A stretch of DNA of 64,000 nt from Oscillospiraceae bacterium (lineage in GTDB: Bacteria > Bacillota > Clostridia > Oscillospirales > Acutalibacteraceae). The notes beneath the pieces are model-generated. The model had not been told where the DNA came from. It saw only the letters and a program-made list of their open reading frames with translations, and did not search any database. Shown piece by piece: positions 3,701 through 64,000 of the stretch. The position numbers were made by a program, and so were the translations under genes. Within the stretch, counting starts at the first letter, position 1. Each line of letters opens with the position of its first letter. The DNA lies in contig SVPM01000003.1 of NCBI GenBank assembly GCA_015065865.1, positions 4,206 to 68,205 of the forward strand. Reading direction: 5' to 3'.

Positions 3701-5193
3701 TCCACCGTCACGGCGAGGTTGATGTTATCGAGAAGGTGCGCCTCATCGATCGCAAACGCCGCCTCGTCCAGTGCAAACTTGAAACTGCCGTTGTGCTGGT
3801 AGATAGCCAGCGCATATTCGTCGCTGTTCGGCAACTGCTCGATCCTCGTAGAAGCCGACGAGGGGGCCAGCAACTTAACCGACGAGGTCTGTGCCGTGCC
3901 GCTCGTGAAGTCGATCTGTGCATAGACCTTACCCTGCGGGATAACTTGATCTTCTGCGATCGTCACACCGCAGGTGTTACAGACCATCGTACCGGTGTTA
4001 CCCTCGGATTCCAACGTGGGAGCCTGATACCCTTCGGTGGTCACTTCCCACGCCTTTTCCACACGCCACGCGTGCATAGCCGCCACCACTTCGGCGGTTG
4101 TCTCTTCCGTGCCGCAATAGGTGGCAAGATCGTACACTTCCACGCGGGCGATCTTTTGGGCATCCGTCATCCGCACGCGGAAAGATCCGTGACCGGCGCC
4201 GTTGCGGAGATATGCCGCGGGAATGACCGCGCCGCCCACGCCGTCGGTAACGGCGGCGGCAACAGAAGCCGCGTTCTTGATCAACGTATTGTGAGTAGCC
4301 GCCATTTGGCCGTCTTCTTTTTTCTCGCCGTAAATTTGATAGGAATCAATAGCGATCGTGGTACTCTCGTGCCCTTCTTTGGTGAAGAAACGCACGTACA
4401 CGGGTTTGTTCACGTTCTCTTCCTTGCCCCACGCCGGCGCATCGGCGGTCAGGCTGAAATAACGATACCCCTCAAAACCCTCCGGCACACCGACTTCATG
4501 ATCGGCGTAAGAAAGCTGATACGCATCCGCGCTCTGTGCCGAAGCATAATCGGGATAGTAGGGGCAGGAAACGGCGTTTTCAAAGTCATAGTAGGAGTAC
4601 GGGACTTCCTCCACGCCGCCGGTATAGGCGGAATTCAAGATCTTGACACCCGTGATGTACAACTTATTCACGGCCTCGCCCAAGACCTTCACGCGCAAGC
4701 GAGTATCCGAACCGCGGATCGCATCCACGCCCGCGGACGAGAGAGTGTAAAACACCACGCCGCGCTCGCCGACCGGCAGGTTGGCATACCGCATTTCGCC
4801 GTTCTTAGCATCGGTCACCAACAGCAGGTCACCCGCCAGCGCGGTTTCGCTGTTGATGTAATATTCCACCGCGTAGGTAACGCCGGTGTTTGCGGGAACG
4901 GCGTCCAAAAGATTGCCGCCGAAATACAAACCGCGACCGCTTTGATTGGTCGTGATACCGTAAAGTCCGGTGGAGCCGATGGTGTCACCTTTCGGAATAT
5001 TGGTGTTGGTTTCGGCCGCCAGAATGTAACGCACCACGCCGATATCTTTCCGCGTAGCACCGTTGTTGCCGCCGAAATCAAAATACCCGAACGGTGCGGG
5101 CAGTTCATCCGCTGCTGTAAACAACGTAATGCCGCTGATGCAAGACAGCAACAACGCGATGCTCAGCACCAGTGACAACAAGCGTTTGGTCAT
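727..5193 (-). CDS. Large secreted multi-repeat protein with C-terminal type I dockerin (1488 aa)
   Basis: AAGGAGG lies 7 nt upstream of the ATG. Signal peptide MTKRLLSLVLSIALLLSCISGITLFTAA. The C-terminus carries the duplicated dockerin segment DVNGDALIDSTDARLVLQFAVRKI / DVDGNGAVNSTDARLILQYAVRKI. The body is three copies of a two-part module of about 450 aa with recurring GxxGDxxCxxCG-type Cys knuckles. The 1469-aa plus-strand ORF 766..5175 is its antisense shadow. Confidence 0.85.
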   Translation of the reverse strand: MTKRLLSLVLSIALLLSCISGITLFTAADELPAPFGYFDFGGNNGATRKDIGVVRYILAAETNTNIPKGDTIGSTGLYGITTNQSGRGLYFGGNLLDAVPANTGVTYAVEYYINSETALAGDLLLVTDAKNGEMRYANLPVGERGVVFYTLSSAGVDAIRGSDTRLRVKVLGEAVNKLYITGVKILNSAYTGGVEEVPYSYYDFENAVSCPYYPDYASAQSADAYQLSYADHEVGVPEGFEGYRYFSLTADAPAWGKEENVNKPVYVRFFTKEGHESTTIAIDSYQIYGEKKEDGQMAATHNTLIKNAASVAAAVTDGVGGAVIPAAYLRNGAGHGSFRVRMTDAQKIARVEVYDLATYCGTEETTAEVVAAMHAWRVEKAWEVTTEGYQAPTLESEGNTGTMVCNTCGVTIAEDQVIPQGKVYAQIDFTSGTAQTSSVKLLAPSSASTRIEQLPNSDEYALAIYQHNGSFKFALDEAAFAIDEAHLLDNINLAVTVEYYLPAVHQDEAATRIAFASAGSKNMAFYKSWGGTCWDSVCVNQGVGLTTGKDALATFTVGKDITYHAPAGQWSGKEEDKITEPVDVETLTFAKTLVNGGEVTLYGWGNKVSEGAPIYIKSLTVFNAAELGTVEGATDHYYVDFEGVATNPYYPTYLTMAGHGLTATANTLEYYKEDTAEEYLRFNYTYVKVPAELLASADDIKPTPVKLVIERKEGSDATGMNYQYQIGGPAATWSAANDVTFDENGRYEKDLLDAVFFNTLNEQSSIRLRDIHYEQAGSEEEGYTYTLKETDDLSEIATVRVYDLRGECEAYHDQFTEANKNLVWVGRVESTYDEAGYSGDLVCAHCGKLFKKGEELALLGDYAQIDFSDGTLKKQSVAGIRPIDGNTSLVPVQIPGTDAYGLKLDHHNSGLVLNLSEFGRFTEQNVLDGQEFAISVEYYVPAATRTDTRIVFDGENGANKIMALYTNYSGSTWDAVAVNAGSPLSRDKLNVATFTVGRDVDYVTGAVGQFGAGNKFEEPQTVNTLEFAKDLVNGGNILLRGWSVQRAAEDDPATEDVDETAPESVVYIKSITVYDAKDYSKQEIDTSLEFIDYTTEFVASPVYYPQYAEKGQAYGITGNQISEGFRPDGTEIVYVYYTVTDALKPADKDTQAVAMRFYFKEGVEREEFSFAYQTAAPWTYTTLEIVDGVAEGVFDDAAFTNGLNGKASFRLSNDPTDPIVDDIARIEVFVVKDKSALQDLVAQGAEITKFKTPDSVETYNAVVAEVQEVIADAWATEEEIAAAVAKLEEAALALVDCDHACGTALVGNVEATCFAAGYTGDQACIDCGYVAPEGVGEAIPKHETEIINVKAPTCEEEGNTGDLWCKECEHIAKPGNVITKLPHTWDEGEVTKIATKNEYGEFTKTCTVCGEKLVTRLEFVPELGDVNGDALIDSTDARLVLQFAVRKIDPAEVDLEMADVDGNGAVNSTDARLILQYAVRKIDKFPIS

Positions 5194-5386: not shown

Positions 5387-6532
5387 TTATTTGCGATCGG
5401 CCAACAGTTGACGGATCTTTTCGTGCGGATCGATGATCACACTGGCGGACATATCGTGGTTGAGCGCCGCAATGATGTACGCAATGTACTTGGACACGTC
5501 CACATCGTGGAACCACGGACGGGCCAGCAATTCGGGCGTGCGGTAGGTCAAGTTGGTGCCGAACACGCCGTCAATGATACCGTCGGCATACGCTTTATCG
5601 AACGTATCCAAGCCGTTGGTGAAGATGGCGTAGGTGGCATAGGTGAAGATGCGTTTTGCATTGCGCTTTTTCAGTTCATATGCAATATCCAACATCGATT
5701 CACCCGAAGAAATGATGTCGTCTGCAATAAAGACGTCCTTACCCTCCACCGAGTTGCCGAGATACTCATGGGCGACGATGGGGTTGCGGCCGTTGACGAT
5801 GCGGGAATAATCACGGCGTTTGTAGAACATACCGAGATCCACACCGAGCACCGAAGAATAGTACATATTGCGGTTCATTGCACCCTCATCGGGGCTGATG
5901 ATGGTGAGGTGGTCGCGATCCGCCTTCAGATCGGGGAACGCGCGGAACAGGCATTTCAGCACCTGATAGGTGGGCATCACGTTATCAAAACCCATCAGCG
6001 GCACCGCGTTTTGCACGCGGGGATCGTGTGCATCAAACGTGAGAATATTCTCCACACCCATCGCCTGCAACTCCTGCAACGCCCATGCACAGTCGAGCGA
6101 TTCACGATAACTGCGGCGGTGTTGACGGCCGCCGTACAACAGCGGCATCACCACGTTGATGCGGTGCGCCTTACCGCCCGCCGCTTGGATGATACGCTTG
6201 AGGTCTTGGAAATGATCGTCCGGCGACATCGCGTTTTTGCGGCCGAACAGTTTATAATCGCAATCGTAGTTGCCCACGTCAATGATGATATACAGGTCGT
6301 CGCCGCGGATACTGCTCTTGATGATACCCTTGCCGTCACCCGACGAGAAACGCGGACAATCCGACTCCACAATAAAGGTATCCTCCGAATAAAAACTGCC
6401 CGCCGCCCAGTTGGTGAGATAGTGGTTGATCTTTTCGGTCAACTCTTCCGTCCCGCGCATGGGAAGCAGACGAAGGGGGGCTACCCGACTTTCCGAATGA
6501 AAAATATTTTCGCTGGTGATGATCTCCGACAA
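5387..6532 (-). CDS. prs: Ribose-phosphate pyrophosphokinase (long-form PRPP synthetase)
   Basis: 381-aa ORF with the PRPP-binding loop KDVFIADDIISSGESMLD and overall Prs-like layout. Apparent TTG start at 6532 with GAGG 7 nt upstream (the next in-frame ATG is codon 25, inside conserved sequence). Confidence 0.8.
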   Translation of the reverse strand: MSEIITSENIFHSESRVAPLRLLPMRGTEELTEKINHYLTNWAAGSFYSEDTFIVESDCPRFSSGDGKGIIKSSIRGDDLYIIIDVGNYDCDYKLFGRKNAMSPDDHFQDLKRIIQAAGGKAHRINVVMPLLYGGRQHRRSYRESLDCAWALQELQAMGVENILTFDAHDPRVQNAVPLMGFDNVMPTYQVLKCLFRAFPDLKADRDHLTIISPDEGAMNRNMYYSSVLGVDLGMFYKRRDYSRIVNGRNPIVAHEYLGNSVEGKDVFIADDIISSGESMLDIAYELKKRNAKRIFTYATYAIFTNGLDTFDKAYADGIIDGVFGTNLTYRTPELLARPWFHDVDVSKYIAYIIAALNHDMSASVIIDPHEKIRQLLADRK

Positions 6533-9010: not shown

Positions 9011-9390
9011 AGTAACAACACCGCCTTTACCCCGCCGTACAGCAAGAAGCCGGCCATCGCCCAGCGCAGCCACTGCACGGGAATGCGGCGAAACAAGATT
9101 CCCGCCAACCCACCGCCGACCACACCGCCCAAAAGATACCAACCCATGTCCGCTACCACCAAACCGCCGCGCAAAAAATACACGGTGAGCGACACCATGG
9201 AGATCGGCACCATCACGGCGAGCGAGGTGGCATAGGCATTCTTTTCGGGCAATTTGAGCCATCCGATAAGCAACGGCACGGCGATCAACCCGCCGCCCGC
9301 ACCAAACAGGCCGTTTGCCGTTCCCGCAGCAGCTCCCACCACCAACAGCTTGCCGATATCACGGGCGGCTGTTTTTTTGTTTTCCACCAT
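9007..9390 (-). CDS. TauE/SafE-family anion exporter, half-size subunit (first of a pair)
   Basis: MVENKKTAARDIGKLLVVGAAAGTANGLFGAGGGLIAVPLL..., with 4 hydrophobic segments. ATG 9390 is preceded by AAAGGAG at 6 nt. The track start at 9408 is a TTG inside the RBS region. Confidence 0.65.
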   Translation of the reverse strand: MVENKKTAARDIGKLLVVGAAAGTANGLFGAGGGLIAVPLLIGWLKLPEKNAYATSLAVMVPISMVSLTVYFLRGGLVVADMGWYLLGGVVGGGLAGILFRRIPVQWLRWAMAGFLLYGGVKAVLLL

Positions 9391-54769: not shown

Positions 54770-55312
54770 TCATTCTTCCATTTGTTTGCCCAAAAATGCC
54801 GCCGCCACCTGCATCATCTTCACGTCCCCCTCGCCGGGGATCGCACCGCTTTCGGGCAACAGCAAACACACACTGCCGATAACATCGCCCGCCGCAATAA
54901 TGGGTACCGCCACCGCGGCAAAGCGGTCCACCCCTTCCGCGATCAACATACGTTCGCTCTCCCCCGCGCGCGCCAGATGGGTGCGCCGCTGCTCCATCGC
55001 GGCCTCCAACATCGAGGAAACCTCGCGGTCCTGCAGTTCCTTTTTGGAAACGCCCGCCACTGCGATAATGCGGTCACGGTCGCTCACCACTACCGCCTGC
55101 CCCAACGCACGCGCCATCACCTCGGCATACTGCACCGCAAATTCACCGAGCTCCCCCATCGGCGAATACTTCTTGAACACGACCTCCCCATCGTTGTTAG
55201 TGAAAATTTCAAGCGGGTCTCCCTCGCGTATCCTCATTGTTCTTCTAATTTCTTTCGGTATAACCACACGACCAAGGTCGTCTATGCGTCTTACAATACC
55301 TGTTGCTTTCAT
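54770..55312 (-). CDS. spoVT: Stage V sporulation protein T (AbrB-type regulator with GAF-like C-domain)
   Basis: MKATGIVRRIDDLGRVVIPKEIRRTMRIREGDPLEIF (swapped-hairpin AbrB fold) plus a C-terminal half of about 125 aa. Total 180 aa, as expected for SpoVT. AAAGGAG lies 9 nt upstream of ATG 55312. The track ORF continues in frame upstream to 55702. Confidence 0.85.
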   Translation of the reverse strand: MKATGIVRRIDDLGRVVIPKEIRRTMRIREGDPLEIFTNNDGEVVFKKYSPMGELGEFAVQYAEVMARALGQAVVVSDRDRIIAVAGVSKKELQDREVSSMLEAAMEQRRTHLARAGESERMLIAEGVDRFAAVAVPIIAAGDVIGSVCLLLPESGAIPGEGDVKMMQVAAAFLGKQMEE

Positions 55313-55317
55313 ATATA
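55293..55317. repeat. Left copy of the 25-nt direct repeat bounding the island (att-like)
   Basis: ACAATACCTGTTGCTTTCATATATA, identical to 62163..62187. It covers 6 nt upstream, the ATG and codons 2-7 of spoVT (minus strand). Confidence 0.85.
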
Positions 55318-55702
55318 AAAACTCCTTTTCACTATTTAATGGTGTGGAGTTAGTATGTGGAAAGTTGCCATTATTATACTCATTTGACACAATTCTCAGT
55401 ATTTCTTTGAAGATTTGTGCGGTCTCTTCTTCACGCTCCATCCTGTTTAAAGTACATCCTAATTGCTTGATGCCGAAATCACCTCGTCGCTTTTCAACTT
55501 GATACTGAGGAACATCATACATGCGAGCAATAAACGCATCAGAAGCGCGCTCAAATAACTTCTCTAATTGACTCTTGCTCATCCGAAAGAAGTCTGCCGG
55601 CAAGCTCGAAATTGTCAAATGATGAAGACCCAAACTTTTCAAGTCATTCTTAATCATTTTGCCTTCTTTACTTGAATAATCGTAATATTCCTCTTTATAC
55701 AT
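55313..55702 (-). CDS. Island-encoded 130-codon ORF reading in frame into spoVT (no stop codon of its own)
   Basis: MYKEEYYDYSSKEGKMIKNDLKSL...SDAFIARMYDVPQYQVEKRRGDFGIKQL...NSEKEFLY, followed directly by the spoVT ATG. AT-rich island DNA. It is uncertain whether it is translated or what it does. Confidence 0.3.
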
Positions 55703-55994
55703 AATCTATTCCTGCTTTTTTGTTACTTCATAATATAAACACGTATAAAAAATCGAAAATATAATCACTTTCAAAAATTTTCTTTAATTATATTTTCTCA
55801 CAATAACAATTATATATGATTCATATCCCAATGTCATCGGCAAAACTCTGCCAATTTTGTGCCAAATTACTGCCACGTATATATAATTAAAGGTGCCGCT
55901 TATTGTTTCATCGTAATTTGCATTGTTTCATCCTCGATGAAATAAGAAAAGTGATATGAAACAATACAAAAATTACATATTAAAAAAACTCTTC

Positions 55995-56031
55995 AAAAAA
56001 GCAAAGCGCCGCATTTCTGCGACGCTTTTTA
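55995..56031 (-). terminator. Terminator after the XRE-ImmA gene
   Basis: Minus strand: AAAAAGCGTCGCAGAAATGCGGCGCTTTGCTTTTTTG, a stem with one mismatch followed by a T-run, 13 nt past the stop. Confidence 0.6.
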
Positions 56032-56043
56032 AAACAATTTTCA

Positions 56044-57201
56044 TTAATTATTACTTGATTTTTTGAGCATAACGATTTTTGTCGGTTCGGAATTTTGATA
56101 AACCAGAGTGTTTTCGTTCAAATTCATCAACACTTCCAACTCGTTTGCATGCATCGCCAATCCCATTTCGCTTAACTCCGTCACGAGTTCTTTTGGGGTG
56201 AATACATTATTCGTCAACAAAACATCAACAGCATCAGCGAACATAGTCGGAACGGGGGATAGCAAAACATTATCAAGTGGCTCGGATTTTCTCCAACCTT
56301 TATTTTGCATAATTCTAATTAAATATTGATATTGGTTCTGCGATATAACTTTTAAATCACAACTTCTATACAGCATAGCACCAATAGATACTTTCCACTT
56401 CTTTTTGAGCTGTACATAATAGTTTAGATTTTGAGGATCCAACGAAACGTCTTTAGTAAAAGAACTTTCAGGCATCAAGAAGGCTGCTGCAAATTCATTT
56501 GCTTCTTTTTCCTTCGCTTTAAACTCTTCCCTAGAAAGCGCTTCTTCGTCCTCACTCCATTCATGTAGGAGAATATGTCCCAATTCATGTGCTATATCGA
56601 AATTTATTCTTACCGCAGAATCTTTATTTTTAGATAAAGCGATTAAATAAACATCTCCCTCCGGCATTTCGATATACTGACTAAATGCATCAATGTCATC
56701 CGTATCGGTAGGGAATGTTGTCACAATTATTCCGTTTTCTTCGGCTACACGCATAATATCAGATATTGGCTTATCTCCAAGCCCCCAATATTCACGCAAA
56801 GCATCAGCAGCTTCTTTAGGTGAGGTAATTGAACCTATCCATGCCGGTAAATTCAATTCTGGGAATGTAACATATTCATTAAGAAAAGAATATATCTGAG
56901 CTAAATGCTTCATTTTAACTATTTGTGCTGCTCTATACTTTTTATTCGTTTTCATCAAAGAACGAAAATAGGTTGTGCCTGTTTTTACGGACAAATCACT
57001 ATCTTGAATAAAGTATTGATATGGGAAGCCTAAAGTTGCAGACAATGCCGCAATTCGGTCAAACGGCACATTTTCAATTTTTCCTGTTTCATATTGAGAA
57101 ATGGTTTGTTTGCTCACTTCTATTTTTTGAGATAATTCTTCAACTGTTAATCCTCTGTATTGTCGTGCTAATTTTAATCTATTTCCATTAAATGCTTTCA
57201 T
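56044..57201 (-). CDS. XRE-family HTH fused to an ImmA/IrrE (M78-type) zinc metallopeptidase domain
   Basis: 385 aa. N-terminal HTH NRLKLARQYRGLTVEELSQKIEVSKQTISQYETGK. Central HExxH in FDIAHELGHILLHEW, with the surrounding DUF955/COG2856-like context. Confidence 0.8.
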   Translation of the reverse strand: MKAFNGNRLKLARQYRGLTVEELSQKIEVSKQTISQYETGKIENVPFDRIAALSATLGFPYQYFIQDSDLSVKTGTTYFRSLMKTNKKYRAAQIVKMKHLAQIYSFLNEYVTFPELNLPAWIGSITSPKEAADALREYWGLGDKPISDIMRVAEENGIIVTTFPTDTDDIDAFSQYIEMPEGDVYLIALSKNKDSAVRINFDIAHELGHILLHEWSEDEEALSREEFKAKEKEANEFAAAFLMPESSFTKDVSLDPQNLNYYVQLKKKWKVSIGAMLYRSCDLKVISQNQYQYLIRIMQNKGWRKSEPLDNVLLSPVPTMFADAVDVLLTNNVFTPKELVTELSEMGLAMHANELEVLMNLNENTLVYQNSEPTKIVMLKKSSNN

Positions 57202-57225
57202 AATGCATAACTCTCTTTCAATTGA

Positions 57226-57969
57226 TTATGCCTGTTTCTCGAGTTCCTTTTCTTTTAATGCAACCAACTCTTTTCTGTGCAGGCGATCCAACGATTTCTG
57301 TTTAAGGGCATGTCTAGGTTCACTCTTTTCTTGAACCATGTCGACTTCATTGCTCATAATTGGGCTGCTGCTTTCCAACCAATCTTGTTCGCAAACAACA
57401 TCCAAATCTTTATCCAGCACATATGCCTTAAGAGAACCTATGCGACCATATTGATTCGAAAAAACAACCAGTGTATGGTTTACAGTTTCCTTATTTACAT
57501 GATCTTCAAAACCCACGCACATTTCATCAAGGATACGCTCTATCTGTGTTTCGTCTGCAGGCTCACCAACCTCAAACAAAGATTGTTGTTTATGAGGTGC
57601 TTGCAATTCTGCATTCAGGGAAACCAAGGAACGGATATATTGCGGTTGTTTGTTCACCTTTGATTTTTTTACAGTTTCAAATCTAGTATCACGCATAAAA
57701 GACAATACTAGCCCACTATTTTTATCGAGAAGTAACAGCACTTCCCACATTCCGCGTTTGCTGGTAGAATACAAAACATTGCTATCAGAAAAAGCATTTA
57801 TTAAATTACGATATATAAGGTCCCAATTAAGAAACGGACCGGATACATGGGTTTTTAATTCTAAAACCGCATCCGCTTCTTGACGGTCTTCCCCAATTGC
57901 CTGTGAAAGGCACTCGTAAATTTTTTGTTTGGTTTCCTGCTGAATACCATCCAGCAAAGTTTTTCGCAT
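57226..57969 (-). CDS. Hypothetical protein, upstream partner of the XRE-ImmA gene (candidate toxin/effector)
   Basis: 247 aa and soluble, with no motif I can assign. GGAGG lies 8 nt upstream of the ATG. The stop is 24 nt before the downstream ATG, so co-transcription is likely. Confidence 0.6.
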   Translation of the reverse strand: MRKTLLDGIQQETKQKIYECLSQAIGEDRQEADAVLELKTHVSGPFLNWDLIYRNLINAFSDSNVLYSTSKRGMWEVLLLLDKNSGLVLSFMRDTRFETVKKSKVNKQPQYIRSLVSLNAELQAPHKQQSLFEVGEPADETQIERILDEMCVGFEDHVNKETVNHTLVVFSNQYGRIGSLKAYVLDKDLDVVCEQDWLESSSPIMSNEVDMVQEKSEPRHALKQKSLDRLHRKELVALKEKELEKQA

Positions 57970-58003
57970 AAGCTAAACCTCCATTTTTTGTTATCTGTAA
58001 TAT

Positions 58004-58032
58004 ATTTTACAATAAAGCGTGATTTTTGTCAA
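58004..58032 (-). promoter_or_regulatory. Sigma-A-type promoter for the 57969..56044 two-gene unit
   Basis: Minus strand: TTGACA (58032..58027), 17-nt spacer, TAAAAT (58009..58004). Confidence 0.55.
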
Positions 58033-58084
58033 GTGAATTTTATGAAGATTTATTTTCTGTAATTTCAACTGCGATGACTTATAG

Positions 58085-58118
58085 AAAAGTGCGCCTGGCT
58101 ATTGCCAAGCGCACAAAA
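58085..58118 (-). terminator. Terminator after the TOPRIM-like gene
   Basis: Minus strand: GTGCGCTTGG-CAATAG-CCAGGCGCAC followed by TTTTCT, 6 nt past the stop. Confidence 0.6.
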
Positions 58119-58123
58119 GGTCA

Positions 58124-58861
58124 TTAGATATTAATCAATTCTTTAAAACAATCATTTAGAATTTGGGACCTTTCCCAATTTATCGATTTAAGTTGCTCAT
58201 CAATAAGACTGAACACTTTTTCTGGATACAAAACTGCCAGAGATACTCCTAATTTGGTTTTTAATTTCAATCTTTCCGATGTCATTATCTCAGCAGCGTC
58301 AGGAGATATTTCCTCAACAAAAGATTTGCTTTTATCGACCAAATTTCCTCTGTATGTATCTTCTGACAATGCATCCATCAGCAAATTTTCCAAAGCTCCC
58401 TGCTTTGAATGAGGAATTACGACCCCAAGCGTACAGCACTGCGCATCTTGGCCAAAACTGTTTTCAAAAGAATTCATCATCCATGTTCCATCAACCAAAC
58501 TTGTAATACACGGTAAAAGATTGTCCGAAAAATATTTTTCGATTTCTTCAATTTCTCTATTATCACGATCAATTACAAAAGCTATTTTGTATTCAGTTTC
58601 CTCGTTTTCTGATTCTAAAATATAGCTTTCAACATGTTCTTTATAGAATCCTAGAAAATTATCTTTTCCACCAACAGCACAAATAGAAAGTTCTTCCCCG
58701 TCCGCATTTTTGTAATGACCAATAAACTCGTTATCTGCATCAGGATGGGCAATCTTAAATTTAGTTGGTTTTTTATTATGAAGCCAACCTTTAGTCTTTC
58801 CCAAATAATAACTCAATAATATTGCATCCGTTTTTCCTTCACAAAAAATAATACGCGTCAT
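58124..58861 (-). CDS. TOPRIM-like (RloB/DUF4435/DUF3226-type) putative nuclease
   Basis: 245 aa. N-terminal MTRIIFCEGKTDAILL (conserved Glu8) and KIAFVIDRDN (D98-x-D100) give the TOPRIM E...DxD arrangement. The ATG overlaps the ATPase stop (ATGA). Confidence 0.6.
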   Translation of the reverse strand: MTRIIFCEGKTDAILLSYYLGKTKGWLHNKKPTKFKIAHPDADNEFIGHYKNADGEELSICAVGGKDNFLGFYKEHVESYILESENEETEYKIAFVIDRDNREIEEIEKYFSDNLLPCITSLVDGTWMMNSFENSFGQDAQCCTLGVVIPHSKQGALENLLMDALSEDTYRGNLVDKSKSFVEEISPDAAEIMTSERLKLKTKLGVSLAVLYPEKVFSLIDEQLKSINWERSQILNDCFKELINI

Positions 58862-59967
58862 AATCTCACCTCGAAATCATACTTTTCGCGATTTCGTAAA
58901 ACTTCGCTACCAAGCATAGTTCTAGACAAAGTTTCGTGAGATTCTTTATCGTTTCTAAAGGTAATTACATTTATTGGATCATTGCCCAGTGCTTTATGAC
59001 TATATCCTTGTGTTGTCAGCAATGCATCAATAGCTTCTTGGCTATGAGTAGTAATGAATAATTGAACATTATATTTTTCACAAGCCATAAACAAGAACGA
59101 AAAAATATCTTTATAATACTTGCTATGAATAGAAGTTTCAATTTCATCAATCATCAAAATACCATCTTTTGCCGCAGCAATACCATTAGTTAATGAAATC
59201 ACCTTTTTTATACCATCGCCATACGTAGACAAAGGCATTGTCCCTAATTTTTTGTGATATAAACATTCGATTGGGCGATTAGAAAATTCGTTTTTGATAT
59301 ACAAAATATCCATAATATCTTCATCAAACAGTTGTAACAAATAGACGCATAATTCCTTATATGATGATGATCTAACTATATTGGATATATTATTTCCTGA
59401 TAAGTGTTTTGCCGGTGAAAGATAAGAAATGTTTATATAATTTCTTCTTTCTCTTGGTAAATCATTAAATCTTGTAAATCCTGTAAATTCTATAGGAAAT
59501 GAATCAAAATTCGAATTGATCGCAAATTTATAAACACCATCAAAGCACATCGTTTCAACTTCTTGGGGTTCATAATTTTCTGTTCTGTCAAAACGAGTTT
59601 TTCTAAAATCGATAGAGTTCTTATCAATTAAAATATTTTTAGTTTCTCCAAGTAATTCTAAATCTATTTCCCCGATGGGACCATATGCTGAAACGCCCAT
59701 GTGAAAATCATCTTGAGGCAACATGTTTAGAAAACTATCAAATAATGATTGAGAATAAAACCCCGATGCGTCTTCTCTCATCCTCGAAGTCTTAAGCACA
59801 TTATATAAATACATTGGGTTTTTAAATAAAGAAATAGCTTCCAGTATGCTGGTTTTTCCGGAATTGTTGTCCCCTGCAATAATATTGAAATGATTTAAGT
59901 TGTCAAGCCTTAAACCACGTATACCTCTAAACGCATGTATATTTAATGAATTAATATAAATAGCCAC
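58858..59967 (-). CDS. ABC/SMC-like AAA ATPase (AAA_21/OLD-ATPase type)
   Basis: 369 aa. Walker A AGDNNSGKTS (K38), signature-like LSTYGDGIKK, Walker B GILMIDEIETSIH, H-loop FITTHS. GTG start one nt after the HTH stop, with GAGGAGG 9 nt upstream. Confidence 0.8.
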   Translation of the reverse strand: MAIYINSLNIHAFRGIRGLRLDNLNHFNIIAGDNNSGKTSILEAISLFKNPMYLYNVLKTSRMREDASGFYSQSLFDSFLNMLPQDDFHMGVSAYGPIGEIDLELLGETKNILIDKNSIDFRKTRFDRTENYEPQEVETMCFDGVYKFAINSNFDSFPIEFTGFTRFNDLPRERRNYINISYLSPAKHLSGNNISNIVRSSSYKELCVYLLQLFDEDIMDILYIKNEFSNRPIECLYHKKLGTMPLSTYGDGIKKVISLTNGIAAAKDGILMIDEIETSIHSKYYKDIFSFLFMACEKYNVQLFITTHSQEAIDALLTTQGYSHKALGNDPINVITFRNDKESHETLSRTMLGSEVLRNREKYDFEVRL

Positions 59968-59968
59968 T

Positions 59969-60271
59969 TTATATTTCCTCCTCTTCTAAAAATTCGATAG
60001 ACATTCGCATGTTTAACCCATCTGCTATTCTTTTTAATATGACGATACTCGGAATATATCTTCCGTTTTCGATCTTGCTTATATTTGCCTGTGAAATGCC
60101 AGTAATAATAGCCAAGTCCTTTTGAGATAAATCTTTTGATTTTCTAATTCTCACAATAGATTCTCTTACTTCTTTCAATATGTCATATTCTTCCACTTCA
60201 ACGGGGGATTCGTCTATTTGTATTTCTGCATTTTTTAATTTTTCTGCAAGAATTCTTTGAAAGTCACTCAT
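59969..60271 (-). CDS. XRE-family helix-turn-helix regulator (100 aa)
   Basis: IRKSKDLSQKDLAIITGISQANISKIENGRYIPSIVILKRIADGL. AAAGGGG lies 7 nt upstream of the ATG. First gene of the three-gene operon. Confidence 0.8.
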   Translation of the reverse strand: MSDFQRILAEKLKNAEIQIDESPVEVEEYDILKEVRESIVRIRKSKDLSQKDLAIITGISQANISKIENGRYIPSIVILKRIADGLNMRMSIEFLEEEEI

Positions 60272-60294
60272 AAAATTACCCCTTTCTATCCGGT

Positions 60295-60323
60295 ATTATA
60301 ACGCAACAGCTTTAAAAAATCAA
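60295..60323 (-). promoter_or_regulatory. Sigma-A-type promoter of the HTH-ATPase-TOPRIM operon
   Basis: Minus strand: TTGATT (60323..60318), 17-nt spacer, TATAAT (60300..60295). The -35 lies 3 nt from the 55-nt palindrome. Confidence 0.55.
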
Positions 60324-60326
60324 TAG

Positions 60327-60381
60327 AAAATATATCAAATATGCAATATTTTTAAAAAATATTGCATATTTGATATATTTT
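60327..60381. promoter_or_regulatory. 55-nt perfect palindrome (candidate operator) in the divergent intergenic region
   Basis: AAAATATATCAAATATGCAATATTTTT-A-AAAAATATTGCATATTTGATATATTTT. The 27-nt arms were checked base by base around the centre at 60354. Confidence 0.6.
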
Positions 60382-60554
60382 GTGCGTTTGAAGATAGAAA
60401 TCCATATACTATTTTAATTGTGTACTCACCAAATATATTATATGAATTGGCGTTACAAATTGTGTTGTTATTATCTGTATTTTGAGGAGATTTATACTGC
60501 ATGAATTTACTTTTGAAATGAAATATGACATAATAAATTAAGTGAGGTGATTTT

Positions 60555-61040
60555 ATGAAAGCTAAAGCACTTTTATCTGCAATTACAGGTTTCTTTTTTG
60601 GCTTAATTACATATTTCTTATTGCAATATTTAGAAAAGGATGGCGCTCTTTTAATTTCTGTTTTTGGAGGATTGTTGTTCTATATTTTGTTATTTGTATT
60701 TCTTCTTGTTTATGGGAAGATTATGGATAAAAAGTATGCAAAATTTGAAAAAGAAATAACCTCTCCTGTTTTTTATAAAACCAATGGTAATTTTAACTTG
60801 GGAAACGGCAAAGTTAAAAACGGCAATATATATTTTTGCGAAGCCGGCATTGTTTGCTTATGCCTTGATGAAAAACCATATACATTGGATGAAATATTAT
60901 TACAAGACATTGACCATTATCAATTTGATGATATTCACCTAAACATTTTTGCTAAAGACGGAAGGCTATTTGTTATTACACTTCCAGATGCCAAGAATGT
61001 TATAAAAACCTTAAATGAAAAAGATTGGATAGAGTTTTAA
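60555..61040 (+). CDS. Hypothetical membrane protein (2 TM + small beta-rich, PH/GRAM-like C-domain)
   Basis: 161 aa. TMs LLSAITGFFFGLITYFLL and LISVFGGLLFYILLFVFLLVY, then NGNIYFCEAGIVCLCLDEKPYTL...HLNIFAKDGRLFVITLPDAKNVIKTL. GAGGTG lies 5 nt upstream of the ATG. Confidence 0.55.
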   Translation: MKAKALLSAITGFFFGLITYFLLQYLEKDGALLISVFGGLLFYILLFVFLLVYGKIMDKKYAKFEKEITSPVFYKTNGNFNLGNGKVKNGNIYFCEAGIVCLCLDEKPYTLDEILLQDIDHYQFDDIHLNIFAKDGRLFVITLPDAKNVIKTLNEKDWIEF

Positions 61041-61059
61041 TTGCAAAGGCGGTGATTTT

Positions 61060-61998
61060 GTGGAAGGTATGTTTCTTCGCAAGAAATTTAACATTTGGCT
61101 TTTTCTATTGTTTGCTTGTGGCTTGTTTTTTATCGGTCTATATATTTTTCTAAATATAGTTGACCCGAAAGCAACCAGTGAATTATTAACCTTTTTGATT
61201 ATGGGCATTCTTATTATTTTGGTTGTAATTCCGTCTTGGCTGTTAAATTTCGGGGCGTTTATTCACATTGATGAAGATTCAATCAAAGCAAAGTACCATT
61301 GGTTTGGTAAAATTGATTGCAAACTTTCGGATGTGACTTTTGCCGTAGCACGAGTTAACACCTTAATTATTCAATTAAAAGACGGTAAAACCCACACCAT
61401 AATGGGTATTGAGAATTCTTGGCCACTCGCTTCAATTATTCGACGGAATATTCCATTTGAGGTAACTGAACAACCTGAAATACTGATGGAAAAGTTAAAC
61501 AACTTAAAAGCGACCAAAAAGAATGGGCTTATATATGTTTGTTCCGGTGTTGCATTAATGTTTGTCATTGTTTTTGTTACAGTATTCTTGACCGGCGAAA
61601 GAGAAATGCACGAATTCAGCAACATTGATTGGACAATATTCGCCATTATGGTTGCAACAGAAATTGCAACAGCTGTTGCTACATTCTATTTTGCAGGGAA
61701 AACAGGAAAGAATAATATTCCGATCGAAAAGTTGCAATATGAAATTCAACGAAGAATCATTGAAACCCAACCATTGTTGCCCGGTTTTGTTATAGCCGTT
61801 TATACGGATGAAAATTATACGGGACGCATTACTTTATTTGGATATCCACACGATAGTGCTGTTTATTATTCGGTGCAAGAATTCGATTCTGATTACACTC
61901 TTTTTAGAGCATACACATCTGATGTCTATGGTAGTCAAGAAGAGTTGCCGGCTGATTTCGAAACTTTGATTGACATAACAGATAAAGTATTACATTAA
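61060..61998 (+). CDS. Hypothetical membrane protein (2 TM + PH/GRAM-like module + 2 TM + C-terminal soluble domain)
   Basis: 312 aa. GTG start in the context GGCGGTGATTTTGTG, which mirrors GAGGTGATTTTATG of the previous gene. LIIQLKDGKTHTIMGIENSWPLASII parallels NIFAKDGRLFVITLPDAKNVIKTL. Confidence 0.5.
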   Translation: MEGMFLRKKFNIWLFLLFACGLFFIGLYIFLNIVDPKATSELLTFLIMGILIILVVIPSWLLNFGAFIHIDEDSIKAKYHWFGKIDCKLSDVTFAVARVNTLIIQLKDGKTHTIMGIENSWPLASIIRRNIPFEVTEQPEILMEKLNNLKATKKNGLIYVCSGVALMFVIVFVTVFLTGEREMHEFSNIDWTIFAIMVATEIATAVATFYFAGKTGKNNIPIEKLQYEIQRRIIETQPLLPGFVIAVYTDENYTGRITLFGYPHDSAVYYSVQEFDSDYTLFRAYTSDVYGSQEELPADFETLIDITDKVLH

Positions 61999-62002
61999 CT
62001 AC

Positions 62003-62031
62003 AAAAGCGGAGTGAAATCACTCCGCTTTTG
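62003..62031 (+). terminator. Rho-independent terminator after 61060..61998
   Basis: AAAAGCGGAGTG-AAAT-CACTCCGCTTTT followed by GC. Confidence 0.75.
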
Positions 62032-62119
62032 CTATGTATAAAAACCACCAAAAAAGCATTTTTGACACCAATGCGTTCAATGGGGCAAACCAGTGAAAAC
62101 CCTAGTGTTTATGCGGGTT

Positions 62120-62182
62120 TCAGGCGGTTTGCCCTAAAATAACGCATTCCTCTATACGACGAACAATACCTGTTGCTTTCAT
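62120..62182 (-). pseudogene. Orphaned 5' remnant of spoVT (20 codons) left next to the native upstream region
   Basis: The minus strand reads AAGGAG-N10-ATG AAA GCA ACA GGT ATT GTT CGT CGT ATA GAG GAA... = MKATGIVRRIEECVILGQTA*. The first 10 residues match SpoVT and the sequence then diverges into island DNA. Confidence 0.55.
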
Positions 62183-62187
62183 ATATA
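62163..62187. repeat. Right copy of the 25-nt direct repeat bounding the island (att-like)
   Basis: ACAATACCTGTTGCTTTCATATATA, identical to 55293..55317. Confidence 0.85.
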
Positions 62188-62275
62188 CATTTCTCCTTAA
62201 ATTACAAATTGTGTTATTATGGGAGAAATACGCCGTAAGAACTAATTTTTCGAATTTGCTAACATACGAAAAGCA

Positions 62276-63454
62276 TCAAAAGCGGGCAAACCACCGCACC
62301 ACCTTGTGCACTACGCGGTACACGGGTGTTTCTAAAACCTTCTTTGCATCCTTCAGTTTTTCTCGAATCTCTATGTTTTGCGGACAGTGTTTTTCACATT
62401 TCCCGCAGCCGATGCAGTTGGAGGCCGCGGTGGAGTTTTTGCGAAGAGCCGTGCATATAACGTAATCTACCATCGACCAGAATCTGCCCTCGGCATAGCG
62501 GCGATTATATGCTGCAAAGGTGCCCGGAATATCCACCCCTTTCGGACAGGGCATACAATACCCGCAACCGGTGCAACCCACCTTTAGTTCGGAGTTGATG
62601 GCGGCTATGACCTTTTTGAGCATCGCCTCTTCATCGGCGCCGATCTCACCAACCTTTACCGAAGATGCTGTGTCTATATTTTCACTGACCATCTCATCGG
62701 AATTCATGCCCGACAGCACCACCGTTACTTCGGGCTGATTCCACAACCAGCGAAAAGCCCATCCCGCAGGAGTGTGGGACGTTTTGTATTCCGAAAAGAT
62801 CTTTTTGGCCGCTTCGGGCAATCGGCTCACCAGCTTGCCGCCGCGAAGAGGTTCCATTATCATAACCGGCAGACCTTTGGCGTGGGCGTAATAAAGTCCT
62901 CGGCGTCCCGCTTGAGAATGCTCGTCCATATAGTTGTATTGTATAAGGCACATATCCCAATCGTATGCATCCACCAACGCACAAAACATATCCGCGTTTC
63001 CGTGATACGAAAATCCTACCTGTCGGATCGCGCCGACCGCCTTTTTTTGCTCTAACCATTCTTCCATACCAAGCGTTTTCAGGCGATTCCACGTATCGGT
63101 ATCGGTGAGCATATGCATAAGATAGTAATCTATATGATCTGTGCGTAAACGCTTCAATTCCTCCGAAAACACCTTTTCAACGTCGTCGATGCTCTTGATG
63201 AGGTAATGCGGCAATTTGGTGGCTATGTAGACCTGATCGCGGATACCGTTTTTTTCTAATATTTCGCCGAGCGCCGCCTCACTACCCGGATAAATATAGG
63301 CGGTATCAAAATAGTTGACACCACCGTTAAAGGCGGTCATAATTTGTTTTTCGGTTTGGACCATATCGATCATACCCAGTTTGTTTTTGAATCGCATACA
63401 GCCAAATCCCAAAATAGAGAGTTTATTACCGGATCTGTCTGTTCTGTAGTTCAT
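62276..63454 (-). CDS. Aldo/keto reductase with a C-terminal 4Fe-4S ferredoxin-type domain
   Basis: MNYRTDRSGNKLSILGFGCMRF...YIDTAYIYPGSE (AKR N-terminus). C-terminal CTGCGYCMPCP and CIGCGKCEKHCP cluster motifs. AAAGGAG lies 6 nt upstream. Confidence 0.8.
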   Translation of the reverse strand: MNYRTDRSGNKLSILGFGCMRFKNKLGMIDMVQTEKQIMTAFNGGVNYFDTAYIYPGSEAALGEILEKNGIRDQVYIATKLPHYLIKSIDDVEKVFSEELKRLRTDHIDYYLMHMLTDTDTWNRLKTLGMEEWLEQKKAVGAIRQVGFSYHGNADMFCALVDAYDWDMCLIQYNYMDEHSQAGRRGLYYAHAKGLPVMIMEPLRGGKLVSRLPEAAKKIFSEYKTSHTPAGWAFRWLWNQPEVTVVLSGMNSDEMVSENIDTASSVKVGEIGADEEAMLKKVIAAINSELKVGCTGCGYCMPCPKGVDIPGTFAAYNRRYAEGRFWSMVDYVICTALRKNSTAASNCIGCGKCEKHCPQNIEIREKLKDAKKVLETPVYRVVHKVVRWFARF

Positions 63455-63619
63455 AGTAACTCCTTTTCAAGATCTTGATCTATTATACCACACTATAAGC
63501 ATTCGTTCAACCGCCAAACCAAAAATGAGGTGAAAAACAATTTATGCCGTTCGGCCTTTACTTGTTGGTTTGAATGTGATAAAATGACAGTATTCAACAA
63601 CATCTGCGGAGGGTCAAAT

Positions 63620-64000
63620 ATGGCTAAGACACAACGAAATTACGGCATTGATCTCTTGCGTATTCTCTCCATCTTTATGGTGGCTGTCTTACACGTTTCG
63701 GGACACGGCGGGATCTTGGTGTCCGTTTCTTCGCCGTGGGATCGCGCAACCGCTTGGTTTTTGGAAACACTCGCCTTCCCTGCCGTGAACTGCTTTGTGC
63801 TGATCTCGGGATTTGTGGGATATCGCGGTGAAAAGTATACGCCGAAACTGCAAAACATCCTCTCCATCTTTTTCACCGTACTGTTTTACAGCGTCAGTAT
63901 GTGTGCGTTGGTGCAACTGCTCGCGCCGAACGCCGTCAGTTTGCAGGATATAAAAAACTCCTTTTTACCGCTGCTGCGCGGACAATACTGGTTTTACTCC
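63620..64000 (+). CDS. Acyltransferase family 3 membrane protein, N-terminal fragment (runs off the right edge)
   Basis: My own translation from ATG 63620 (GGAGGG 6 nt upstream): MAKTQRNYGIDLLRILSIFMVAVLHVSGHGGILVS...NCFVLISGFVGY... The frame is open to 64000, and the N-terminus is typical of O-acyltransferases. Confidence 0.7.
   Translation, partial: MAKTQRNYGIDLLRILSIFMVAVLHVSGHGGILVSVSSPWDRATAWFLETLAFPAVNCFVLISGFVGYRGEKYTPKLQNILSIFFTVLFYSVSMCALVQLLAPNAVSLQDIKNSFLPLLRGQYWFYS

Follow-up and report, generated by a model that had tools for sequence, protein, structure and literature searches.

Staphylococcal cassette chromosome (SCC) elements and pseudo-SCC (psiSCC) elements occupy the rlmH gene (orfX) of staphylococci, where large serine recombinases (LSRs) of the CcrAB or CcrC type act, an end supplied by the element keeps the gene intact, and many units carry no recombinase. 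Cis-mobilizable elements (CIMEs), known from the fda site of the integrative and conjugative elements (ICEs) ICESt1 and ICESt3 in Streptococcus thermophilus, are flanked by att sites, lack genes for recombination and transfer, and are proposed to move after an ICE has integrated beside them. The intervening elements skin (in sigK) and SPbeta (in spsM) are excised by LSRs from genes of the mother cell, a terminally differentiating cell, while core defence hotspots of Escherichia coli and Pseudomonas hold variable defence genes at a fixed site between core genes, without mobility genes. Here we describe a low-GC island of 6.9 kb at the 5' end of the sporulation gene spoVT, located in a 64,000-nt stretch of an Oscillospiraceae genome (the window, to which all coordinates refer), and compare it with loci and contigs labeled L001 onwards. 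With a probability of roughly 0.7, we read it as a non-autonomous, SCC/psiSCC-like composite cassette island seated at an LSR attachment site in the spoVT 5' end. Full-text searching of the literature found no published description of spoVT as an attachment or integration site, and the hotspot, which lies in abundant, poorly studied Clostridia of the gut and rumen, appears to be previously unreported.

Among the systems compared, SCC/psiSCC at rlmH is in our assessment the closest functional analogue, with CIMEs and clusters of attC sites lacking an integron integrase (CALINs) more distant. As in SCC/psiSCC, the window shows insertion at the end of a conserved gene that a surrogate end keeps intact, and direct repeats holding the integration sequence mark unit edges in tandem arrays that include recombinase-less units. 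Tandem growth at the gene-proximal site, cargo of accessory, resistance or defence genes, and autonomous relatives that use LSRs, often more than one per element, are further likenesses. The target, however, is the 5' end of a sporulation regulator rather than the 3' end of rlmH, and the surrogate needs a promoter, a ribosome-binding site (RBS) and at least 10 codons, replacing a whole recombinase half-site. Moreover, the autonomous relatives are conjugative elements of about 60 kb that split the gene without bringing a surrogate, the cassettes are built to a highly uniform plan, and the hosts are Oscillospirales; kinship with SCC exists only at the level of the LSR superfamily, making this a functional analogy and not homology.

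Like a CIME, the island lacks recombination and transfer genes and lies at an ICE attachment site, but CIMEs carry attL and attR and belong to a tyrosine integrase, whereas the window holds an attL-type relic and an attB-type site with no attR, and no ICE–cassette composite was seen among the spoVT loci. The ICEs at spoVT resemble skin and SPbeta in interrupting a sporulation gene with LSRs beside the junction, whereas the island leaves spoVT uninterrupted. Because spoVT is a forespore (sigma-G) gene, excision of an ICE there would cure the spore lineage, which raises the question of whether and where such an ICE excises during sporulation. Integrons and CALINs share with the spoVT arrays mostly single-gene cassettes at one site, one fixed entry end and some arrays without an integrase. 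Unlike in integrons, no IntI-type integrase, attI or attC was found (about 125 arrays searched, hairpins judged by eye), and the cassettes have their own promoter and terminator, lie mostly antisense to the anchoring gene and derive their junctions from LSR att sites. With core defence hotspots the island has in common a defence region at a fixed chromosomal position without mobility genes; the boundary of each unit by a duplicated gene start and an att-derived tail points to site-specific integration, beyond exchange through flanking homology. The island fits none of the classes ICE, CIME, integron and skin-type intervening element: of the features that mark the LSR-ICEs of spoVT, the window has the attL-type junction and lacks an LSR gene, an attR and conjugation genes.

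Island boundaries and the replaced start of spoVT

The 25-nt sequence ACAATACCTGTTGCTTTCATATATA occurs exactly twice in the window, at 55293-55317 (proximal copy, minus strand) and at 62163-62187 (distal copy); no further match with up to three mismatches was found in the window, and the expectation from shuffled sequence is zero. On the minus strand both copies read TATAT-ATG-AAA-GCA-ACA-GGT-ATT-GT, and the proximal one spans positions -6 to +19 of spoVT, which is intact (54770..55312, minus strand, 180 aa; Pfam SpoVT_C 3e-40, MazE_antitoxin 2e-11). An initial annotation had reported this exact repeat at the spoVT start, with both copies beginning MKATGIV, and it holds, as does the imperfect continuation that it described: 10 of the next 15 nt are identical, with different codons (GTA AGA CGC versus GTT CGT CGT), and an AAGGAG lies 9 nt upstream of the ATG in the proximal copy (55327-55322, the spoVT RBS, minus strand) and 10 nt upstream in the distal copy (62198-62193). 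The GC step proposed there stood on the spoVT side, where 500-nt windows give 0.54-0.61 against 0.26-0.39 in the island, but not on the far side (62.2-64 kb), which has 0.42-0.52 (42-52%) instead of 55-57%. Three metagenome contigs from different samples (L001-L003) span both junctions, two at 100% and one at 99.97% identity, so the island is not an assembly chimera. Exact-protein look-ups with SpoVT and with the flanking aldo/keto reductase returned only contigs 99.97-100% identical to the window.

The front of spoVT belongs to the island. The GC content at third codon positions (GC3) is 0.27 in codons 1-11, 0.38 in codons 12-35 and 0.74 in the remainder, and the best two-segment change point falls after codon 25 (0.24 before, 0.74 after). 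Uninvaded high-GC relatives have GC-rich first codons (GGC ATC GTT CGC CGC ATC) and unrelated, GC-richer 5' untranslated regions; together with the low GC3 of the gene front, this indicates that the first 75-105 nt of spoVT in the window are element-derived, codons 1 to about 25-35 with their foreign low-GC usage forming a surrogate 5' end. A sigma-G-type promoter precedes them on the minus strand (GTATA at 55379-55375, a 17-nt spacer, CATACTA at 55357-55351), within the 3' part of ORF130, a small conserved open reading frame (ORF) of the island that also takes in the RBS. The B. subtilis sigma-G consensus is GHATR-N17/18-CATXHTA, and we take GTATA-N17-CATACTA (55379-55351) to be a perfect fit to it. 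The position of this promoter in ORF130 implies that a forespore-type promoter as well as the first codons come from the island, which adds a promoter to the surrogate 5' end, on foreign DNA at a site-specific site, that the initial annotation had recognized. Just inside the gene lies an intact attB-type core, GAC GAC, at codons 11-12 (55282-55277, minus strand), defined by alignment with the attL and attR of the ICEs described below.

The distal copy is a truncated spoVT 5' end encoding a 20-aa ORF, MKATGIVRRIEECVILGQTA followed by a stop (62182-62120, minus strand). It retains codons 1-10, which are followed by a degenerate core, GAG GAA (62152-62147). Upstream of it lies a decayed promoter and RBS (62183..62255, minus strand; the part beyond 62220 recognized by eye) of the type found in the conserved end modules that precede spoVT copies, and alignment with module promoters shows that its -35/-10 spacer is about 10 nt shorter. 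Module-like sequence thus extends past the distal copy to at least 62220 by BLAST and to about 62255 by eye; in blastn, module positions 84-288 map to 62219-62016. The class A1 tail follows on the minus strand (61999..62149) and is homologous to the P' arm and left end of ICEs that target spoVT. It contains the P'-arm-like TGCGTTATTTTAGGGC and an imperfect hairpin (62134-62083), then the motif TATACATAG and a bidirectional terminator-type hairpin (~62030-62003) that abuts the stop of a 312-aa gene.

Island ORFs were compared with Pfam and with the defence-system finder PADLOC, and tails and modules with Rfam, which detected no known RNA family in either. The Pfam search of the island ORFs gave no recombinase (Resolvase, Recombinase, Zn_ribbon_recom), transposase, relaxase or replication family, and no type IV coupling protein (T4CP), VirB4 or relaxase genes were found among them. 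A tblastn search with three LSRs (LSR1-3) and four tyrosine recombinases as queries, run against the window and about 125 array loci, had zero matches across the 64-kb window; the absence of a recombinase, transposase, relaxase or replication protein noted at the outset is borne out by the Pfam search and, for recombinases, by tblastn.

Serine-recombinase ICEs and cassette arrays at spoVT

LSR-bearing ICEs insert at spoVT codons 11-12 (core GACGAY) and split the gene. A scan of viral contigs for the spoVT start returned mainly phage AbrB-like genes, but four contigs carry MKATGIVRRIDD, followed by a stop. Their attL consists of the native GC-rich promoter and codons 1-12, ...ATC GAC GAT / TAGGTTATAATAGGAGC..., the element sequence directly after codons 1-12 being TAGGTTATAATAGG..., and a conjugation module with type IV secretion genes comes next. 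Pfam identified in this module a DUF6017 Rep-like protein, DUF3801, a VirD4-type coupling protein, a VirB4-like ATPase and ArdC; topoisomerase-like and ArdA-like proteins were named by eye only. A 64,246-nt isolate contig holds both attL and attR, about 62.7 kb apart. At its attR, ...CTTGACATAAAGG / GACGATCTGGGA..., spoVT resumes from codon 11, and directly upstream lie three tandem LSR genes, each with Resolvase, Recombinase and Zn_ribbon_recom domains. The right junction with two or three LSRs is also present in L315, L316, L322, L326 and L363, and an LSR homologue look-up recovered the junction again in L391 (an NCBI Oscillospiraceae metagenome-assembled genome, MAG), L392 and L393. The recombinase-bearing relatives that the initial annotation had called for therefore exist, with two or three LSRs at codons 11-12. 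The attL and attR share the core GACGAT, the family core GACGAY corresponding to spoVT codons 11-12. Since these ICEs bring no surrogate start, spoVT is split by them. Genome engineering might draw on this multi-recombinase att system, whose target of 40-50 bp is well defined and lies in a conserved gene.

The distal end of the island coincides with the left junction of these ICEs. In blastn, the ICE left end matches window positions 62197-62087 with 73% identity over 112 nt (E 4e-9), and it aligns with class A copies (defined below) in the large majority of array loci, as judged from the best 45 of 151 blastn rows. In alignment A3 the two junctions fall at the same nucleotide, ...CGC ATC GAC GAT / TAG GTT ATA ATA GGA GC in the ICE and ...CGT ATA GAG GAA / TGC GTT ATT TTA GGG C in the window, and similarity runs about 55 nt past the junction, through the hairpin. 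The match at the junction and the homology of the tail indicate that the distal copy is an attL-type relic composed of a host arm, a degenerate core and a P' arm. The 25-nt repeat, taken initially as the integration signature, accordingly marks a site in the first codons, but the crossover core is the adjacent codons 11-12, where GACGAY has become GAGGAA distally.

The other end of the island is not an attR. The attR-type motif CTTGACAYAA-NNN-GAYGAY was found in exactly eight LSR loci and in no array locus, and the window has only chance-level matches with three mismatches elsewhere. In the cassettes, the attR position is taken by a promoter, RBS and codons 1-10, that is, by a complete attB-type site. 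The spoVT-side end of the island is a full replacement of the gene front, fused seamlessly to the host gene body, and this leaves spoVT intact and once more an attB-type site. Insertion into an essential developmental gene has thus met two answers to its cost: the ICEs split the gene, and the cassettes rebuild its promoter and start. With an attL-type relic distally, an attB-type site proximally and no attR, canonical LSR excision is impossible, which excludes, in its simplest form, the earlier suggestion of a satellite mobilised in trans.

Eighty species-level loci with SpoVT relatives were fetched from MAGs of Acutalibacteraceae, Oscillospiraceae or 'Ruminococcaceae', and truncated copies were counted in the 52 loci having at least 3 kb upstream of spoVT. 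One to three truncated spoVT 5' copies lie upstream of spoVT in 13 of these 52 species, which supports the early designation of spoVT as an integration hotspot, and a metagenome scan keyed on the junction type of the window added 43 array loci. All truncated copies are upstream of spoVT and co-oriented with it, with zero reverse-strand matches. Class A copies (n=59, window included) end after codon 10-11 and continue as GA(G/T)G(A/C)(A/T)(T/C)G(C/T)GTTATAATA, with a tail conserved across all 59; class B copies (n=11) end after codon 34 and proceed into a conserved 26-residue extension; four copies belong to neither class. A truncated MKATGIVRRI... ORF upstream of spoVT is a simple signature for mining defence and accessory genes from metagenomes, in which contigs usually break at such arrays.

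Between copies, the arrays hold 645 nt to 6.9 kb of DNA with a GC content of 0.29-0.47, usually one gene antisense to spoVT, with a conserved sigma-70-like promoter and RBS before it and a conserved TAYACATAG motif and hairpin after it. Cargo elsewhere includes TIR, Abi_2, NACHT-SNaCT7 NTPase, DUF4304, DUF1835/DUF3658, leucine-rich repeat (LRR) and helix-turn-helix (HTH) proteins and glycosidases. Distantly related hosts, with only 51-73% identity between their spoVT bodies, share cassettes that are 91-95% identical in DNA and always lie at this site (L013/L026, window/L074, L009/L078 and L036/L052). L048 and L052 have flanks about 93% identical and wholly different arrays (4.9 and 9 kb). One informative pair bears on polarity: the cassette directly upstream of spoVT in L013 is separated from it in L026 by an interposed class B cassette, which makes the unit next to spoVT the added one. 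Distal copies are decayed, the first copy of L009 lacking its ATG and the distal promoter of the window lacking about 10 nt of spacer. The arrays are also mosaic: a gene shared by L006, L078 and L009 has another type of tail in L009 than in the other two, the window and L108 differ likewise, and modules are 90-98% identical between species. SpoVT residues 1-35 are invariant in 17 aligned species and nearly so across all 77 full genes. No integrase or recombinase adjoined any of the ~125 array loci in the tblastn search. Neither the class A and class B junctions nor the terminator motif turned up when viral contigs were scanned for exact patterns (zero matches). Plasmid and phage sequences searched by BLAST with the island and the modules yielded only spoVT/abrB 5' ends or nothing; the match on a Vescimonas chromid carries one uninvaded spoVT.

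The island itself is composite, comprising at least two units that the sequence joins at about 60452/60453, and not the single element first proposed. An internal relic of a cassette end module lies at 60453..60554 (minus strand), 80-98% identical to the module before spoVT copies at more than 30 loci; at 60453 the RBS, ATG and 5' fragment that usually follow the module are missing. The 312-aa gene of the distal unit forms a stand-alone 1261-nt cassette in L074 (91% nucleotide and 94% amino acid identity), and the pair of 312-aa and 161-aa genes forms a 1748-nt cassette in L108 (84% nucleotide identity), where both flanking truncated copies are kept. Within the 64-kb window, the module was found solely upstream of spoVT.

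Formation of the island and alternative explanations

Under the SCC-like reading, an ICE would carry the cassettes along in cis to new hosts. It would first enter the attB that an array has regenerated; recombination between the upstream attL and the ICE attR would then release a composite circle with a normal attP-type joint; and once this circle had been transferred by conjugation and had integrated in the recipient, the ICE could leave alone, with the cassettes and a working spoVT remaining. Such a scheme would use canonical LSR reactions only and would account for each unit ending in a promoter and 5' fragment. Alternatively or additionally, non-canonical LSR reactions, or RecA-dependent recombination across the conserved 100-350-nt modules, could move cassettes. 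Non-canonical reactions of a multi-recombinase system have been reported for CcrAB, and both routes probably contribute here. In the window, with its mutated core and no attR, the island is probably now fixed, and it probably serves its host as a small defence island (Rosmer and PDC-M38) whose genes have what look like promoters and terminators of their own. Recombinase-less defence islands are in this way tied to a concrete LSR-ICE family, giving a testable route of movement.

Several points weigh against this interpretation. No empty site in a near relative was found, the best SpoVT match in the genome collection being 72% identical, and flank synteny is not conserved between the window and relatives in that collection. 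No ICE was found beside a cassette array, so accretion is unobserved, and no recombinase was found for class B and the rarer junction classes. That LSRs act on the cassettes is a proposal drawn from the co-localisation of the junction with the ICE att site. Because the spoVT-side end of a cassette has no P arm, canonical attP x attB and attL x attR reactions are insufficient for a free cassette. Simple ICE decay does not account for the regular layout, in which a conserved promoter and RBS reach to the start codon, the ORF varies and a conserved terminator begins at the stop; nor does the scheme account for the first surrogate 5' end.

In a broader, tentative interpretation, the spoVT 5' end of Oscillospirales might be an integron-like capture platform without a resident integrase. 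Standard expression cassettes, in which a single variable ORF stands between a conserved sigma-A promoter with its RBS and a conserved terminator, would stack at the LSR att site, each regenerating the target with a new sigma-G promoter and the first spoVT codons, and the gene-splitting ICEs would shuttle them between distantly related species. We consider this interpretation less likely than not; if the platform existed, it would represent a distinct class of cassette system, accompanied by a mobile element that interrupts a forespore-expressed sporulation gene.

Spread by RecA alone is unlikely, though it accounts for a good part of the data. It would proceed by Campbell-type single or double crossovers through the spoVT 5' region and the 100-350-nt modules, leaving the LSR junction as an ancestral scar. 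Insertion of a circle bearing a promoter and 5' fragment would indeed yield the observed order of truncated copy, insert and intact copy. The direct repeats are long and variable at several loci, with the promoter included, L027, L074 and L078 being identical from -50 to between +29 and +100, and the substrates for such exchange are plentiful: mosaicism is extensive, with the same gene joined to different tails, modules are 90-98% identical between species, and residues 1-35 of SpoVT are near-invariant. In the window, where the attL is mutated and the one intact site is of the attB type, homologous recombination is the sole remaining route. The first invasion of a naive host is nevertheless implausible by this means, as GC-rich codons and unrelated promoters there leave perfect matches of only about 8 nt (by reading). 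Moreover, the junction classes are few and sharp (codon 11/12 and codon 34/35), the class A junction equals the LSR crossover region to the nucleotide, and the repeat in the window is exact over 25 nt only.

The island could also be the remnant of a single larger ICE or prophage whose recombinase and transfer genes were deleted in place, which we regard as improbable. An attL-type relic homologous to the ICE left end and an island without a recombinase would fit, the 60452/60453 junction resembles a deletion scar, and ICEs of the spoVT family also carry HTH and Peptidase_M78 regulator genes, as the island does. However, the ICEs split spoVT without a surrogate, and decay cannot create a promoter and codons 1-10. 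Sub-units of the island recur independently (the 312-aa gene in L074, the 312-aa and 161-aa genes in L108, the ORF130 end in L088/L106). In tblastn, four ICE backbone proteins (Rep-like, DUF3801-like, T4CP and a 289-aa protein) and one further ORF had no homology to the island, and the matches of the backbone proteins were confined to ICE loci and L122. Unrelated hosts share these small cassettes, so the island is not simply an ICE decayed in place, and the decayed element of the initial annotation does not survive in that form.

There is very little to commend a hairpin-dependent, integron-like system in which a recombinase encoded elsewhere (tyrosine or HUH) reads the tail or terminator hairpin as an attC-like or subterminal site. 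Its attractions are arrays of mostly single-gene cassettes, an imperfect hairpin in each cassette with the 12-nt loop YATAAAYACTR, apparently compensatory stems (GGGCAAAC/GTTTGCCC versus GGACAAAA/TTTTGTCC, AAAGCC/GGCTTT versus AAACCC/GGGTTT; by eye), and the start of the variable region in L048 and L052 just after a host terminator hairpin of the same type. Yet none of the ~125 arrays has an integrase beside it, the hairpins fit, by eye, neither the attC R''/R' consensus nor end pairs of the IS200/IS605 type, the cassettes have their own promoters, unlike integron cassettes, and the covariation is a by-eye reading. The hairpin falls within the region of homology to the left end of the ICEs and is therefore more simply explained as a feature of that end.

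Finally, the distal copy could be taken for a pseudogene from some unrelated member of the abrB family, or for a duplication that arose by chance, with the low-GC DNA acquired separately. This idea draws on the frequency of AbrB-like genes with an identical 5' end (for instance in 75 viral contigs) but is effectively refuted by a 25-nt identity that includes 6 nt of 5' untranslated region, by the relic of a spoVT-type sigma-G promoter with its RBS, and by a tail common to 59 other truncated copies, all upstream and co-oriented; the pseudogene that the initial annotation had named as a refuting option is thereby effectively excluded.

Further candidates were rejected. Against Xer/dif recombination, as in integrative mobile elements exploiting Xer (IMEXs), stand a poor match to the Firmicute dif (by eye) and the position of the junctions, which fall at codons 11 and 34 and away from the ATG; in the profiled 50-64 kb, the GC skew does not switch at spoVT. 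IS200/IS605 palindrome-associated transposable elements (PATEs), IS110 bridge-RNA systems and attC sites were set aside because neither a matching second end nor a recombinase was found and the covariation was not consistent; arm variants of the long palindrome occur in all four combinations, about 11 concordant versus 6 discordant (by eye).

Cargo, end modules and further observations

The remaining features of the island run from spoVT outwards, with sigma-factor assignments and hairpin covariation here and above made by eye or, for sigma factors, by consensus. ORF130 (55313..55702, minus strand) encodes a small, putatively helical protein and characterizes one cassette subtype, whose spoVT-side end it forms. 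Its frame stays open into the spoVT ATG, so that a 310-aa ORF130-SpoVT fusion is formally encoded (54770-55702, minus strand). Most of its 68 homologues are called as fusions to truncated or full spoVT 5' ends, and some stop earlier; on these grounds the read-through is probably a by-product of conserved promoter and RBS sequence, although a real N-terminally extended SpoVT isoform may be the alternative. Neither a recombinase nor a directionality factor is indicated for ORF130, for which Pfam and PADLOC gave no match; its AlphaFold model is helical but of low confidence (predicted local distance difference test score of 62), and Foldseek found no match with E<2. The ORF130 end module is present in L048 and stands beside different cargo in L088 and L106, a putative restriction-modification pair recognized by eye only.

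Two predicted defence systems follow, all genes on the minus strand, in agreement with the initial description of the cargo as defence- or toxin–antitoxin-like modules and membrane proteins. In the first, a Rosmer system with a predicted defence function, RmrA (56044-57201; HTH and Peptidase_M78; PADLOC 4.6e-155, Pfam) and RmrT (57226-57969; DUF5986; PADLOC 1.2e-53, Pfam) are adjacent and co-oriented (56044..57969). The second is a PDC-M38 candidate system, in which PDC-M38B (58124-58861; DUF3226/TOPRIM-like; PADLOC 1.8e-75, Pfam) and PDC-M38A (58858-59967; an AAA_15/AAA_21, ABC-type ATPase; PADLOC 1.7e-110, Pfam) overlap by 4 nt (58858-58861); the type resembles AbiL, PARIS or Gabija. The unit has an HTH regulator (59969-60271; Pfam), upstream of which a near-perfect, AT-rich 47-nt palindrome lies at 60331-60377. 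This palindrome is probably the operator of the regulator; Rfam gave only chance-level miRNA matches there.

Within the internal module relic, two promoters stand back to back: a sigma-G-type promoter on the minus strand (GTATA at 60497-60493, 17 nt, GATAATA at 60475-60469) and, from a promoter scan, a sigma-70-like promoter on the plus strand (TTTACT, 17 nt, TG-CATAAT; 60506-60534) for a 161-aa membrane protein (60555-61040). The 312-aa membrane protein, with a weak DUF6560 match, comes next (61060-61998), and both are encoded on the plus strand, antisense to spoVT.

Several truncated, non-functional spoVT copies carry, between the sigma-G promoter and the RBS, a 65-150-nt GC-rich element bounded by the inverted repeats GTAGGGCGG...CCGCCCTAC (L013 8408-8475, L052 ~6250-6320, L070 ~5490-5640 and L009 ~6130-6195); related but different inserts occupy a comparable position in L026 (~1510-1650) and L048 (~9285-9340). 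The position of this element is approximately constant and coincides with the internal unit junction of the window at 60452/60453. It may be a miniature inverted-repeat transposable element or mark a second recombination-prone point.

In the class A tail, about 55 nt form an imperfect hairpin with the conserved 12-nt loop (62134-62083 in the window), and tail subfamilies (variants of L101, L122 and L115) seem by eye to differ by compensatory stem changes. TGTTATAAT, an extended -10 box, is formed exactly at the class A junction, and from it a small RNA of about 130-150 nt could run to the shared terminator. The L085 copy at 7031 (spoVT orientation) has its inner hairpin in reversed orientation at an unchanged position. 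Every cassette ends with a hairpin of the AAAAGCGAGGTGA...TCACCTCGCTTTT type, as does the host gene upstream of the arrays in L048 (~4972-4994) and L052 (~896-917), where the variable region begins right after it; the shared hairpin could be a common terminator style or itself a recombination point. Class B sites include L025 (7943, 9049), L026 (1673), L048 (9356), L052 (6332, 7205) and L074 (7602). Their ORFs of 57-60 aa have the tail consensus ...TLT.FD+FC.A+HSVV.RYK..., with substitutions that look conservative at the protein level.

Many of the 75 viral contigs (L131-L205) encode phage AbrB-like proteins of 80-157 aa, whose starts (MKATGIVRRIDDLGRVVIPKEIRR...) are identical to spoVT over at least the first 25 residues and at least 32 nt. 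These phages carry ready-made homology to the spoVT att region, and their genes might themselves be targets. In the ICE of the isolate contig, three ORFs of 345, 322 and 633 aa (L310 13647-17540) resemble, by eye, a tyrosine 'recombinase in trio'; they are missing from the otherwise collinear ICE of L261. The ICE cargo in L309 (19699-21810) includes what, on sequence inspection, resembles a Type I restriction hsdS gene adjoining a 295-aa tyrosine recombinase, an arrangement typical of phase-variable specificity subunits. A 199-aa ORF without a Pfam match and an AbiEii gene lie between the third LSR and attR in L391 (5417-6866), the latter indicating that defence cargo is carried at the spoVT-side end of the ICE too. 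About 25-60 nt inside the ICE right end, L314 (9935-10000) contains ATTAAAGGCTTTTCGGATAGTTTGTAAAATT, which matches spoVT codons 1-10 at about 65%; it may be what is left of an earlier surrogate start, or the resemblance may be coincidental.

Judged from ORF translations alone, the rest of the window appears to hold ordinary housekeeping-type genes at 50-62% GC. Beyond the island, positions 62276-64000, together with L002 1-1567 past the window end, are of atypical composition too (42-52% GC). The aldo/keto reductase-4Fe-4S gene there has a GC3 of 0.56 versus ~0.70 for the genome and is followed by Wzy_C and acyltransferase genes, and a variable region may extend beyond the end of the window.

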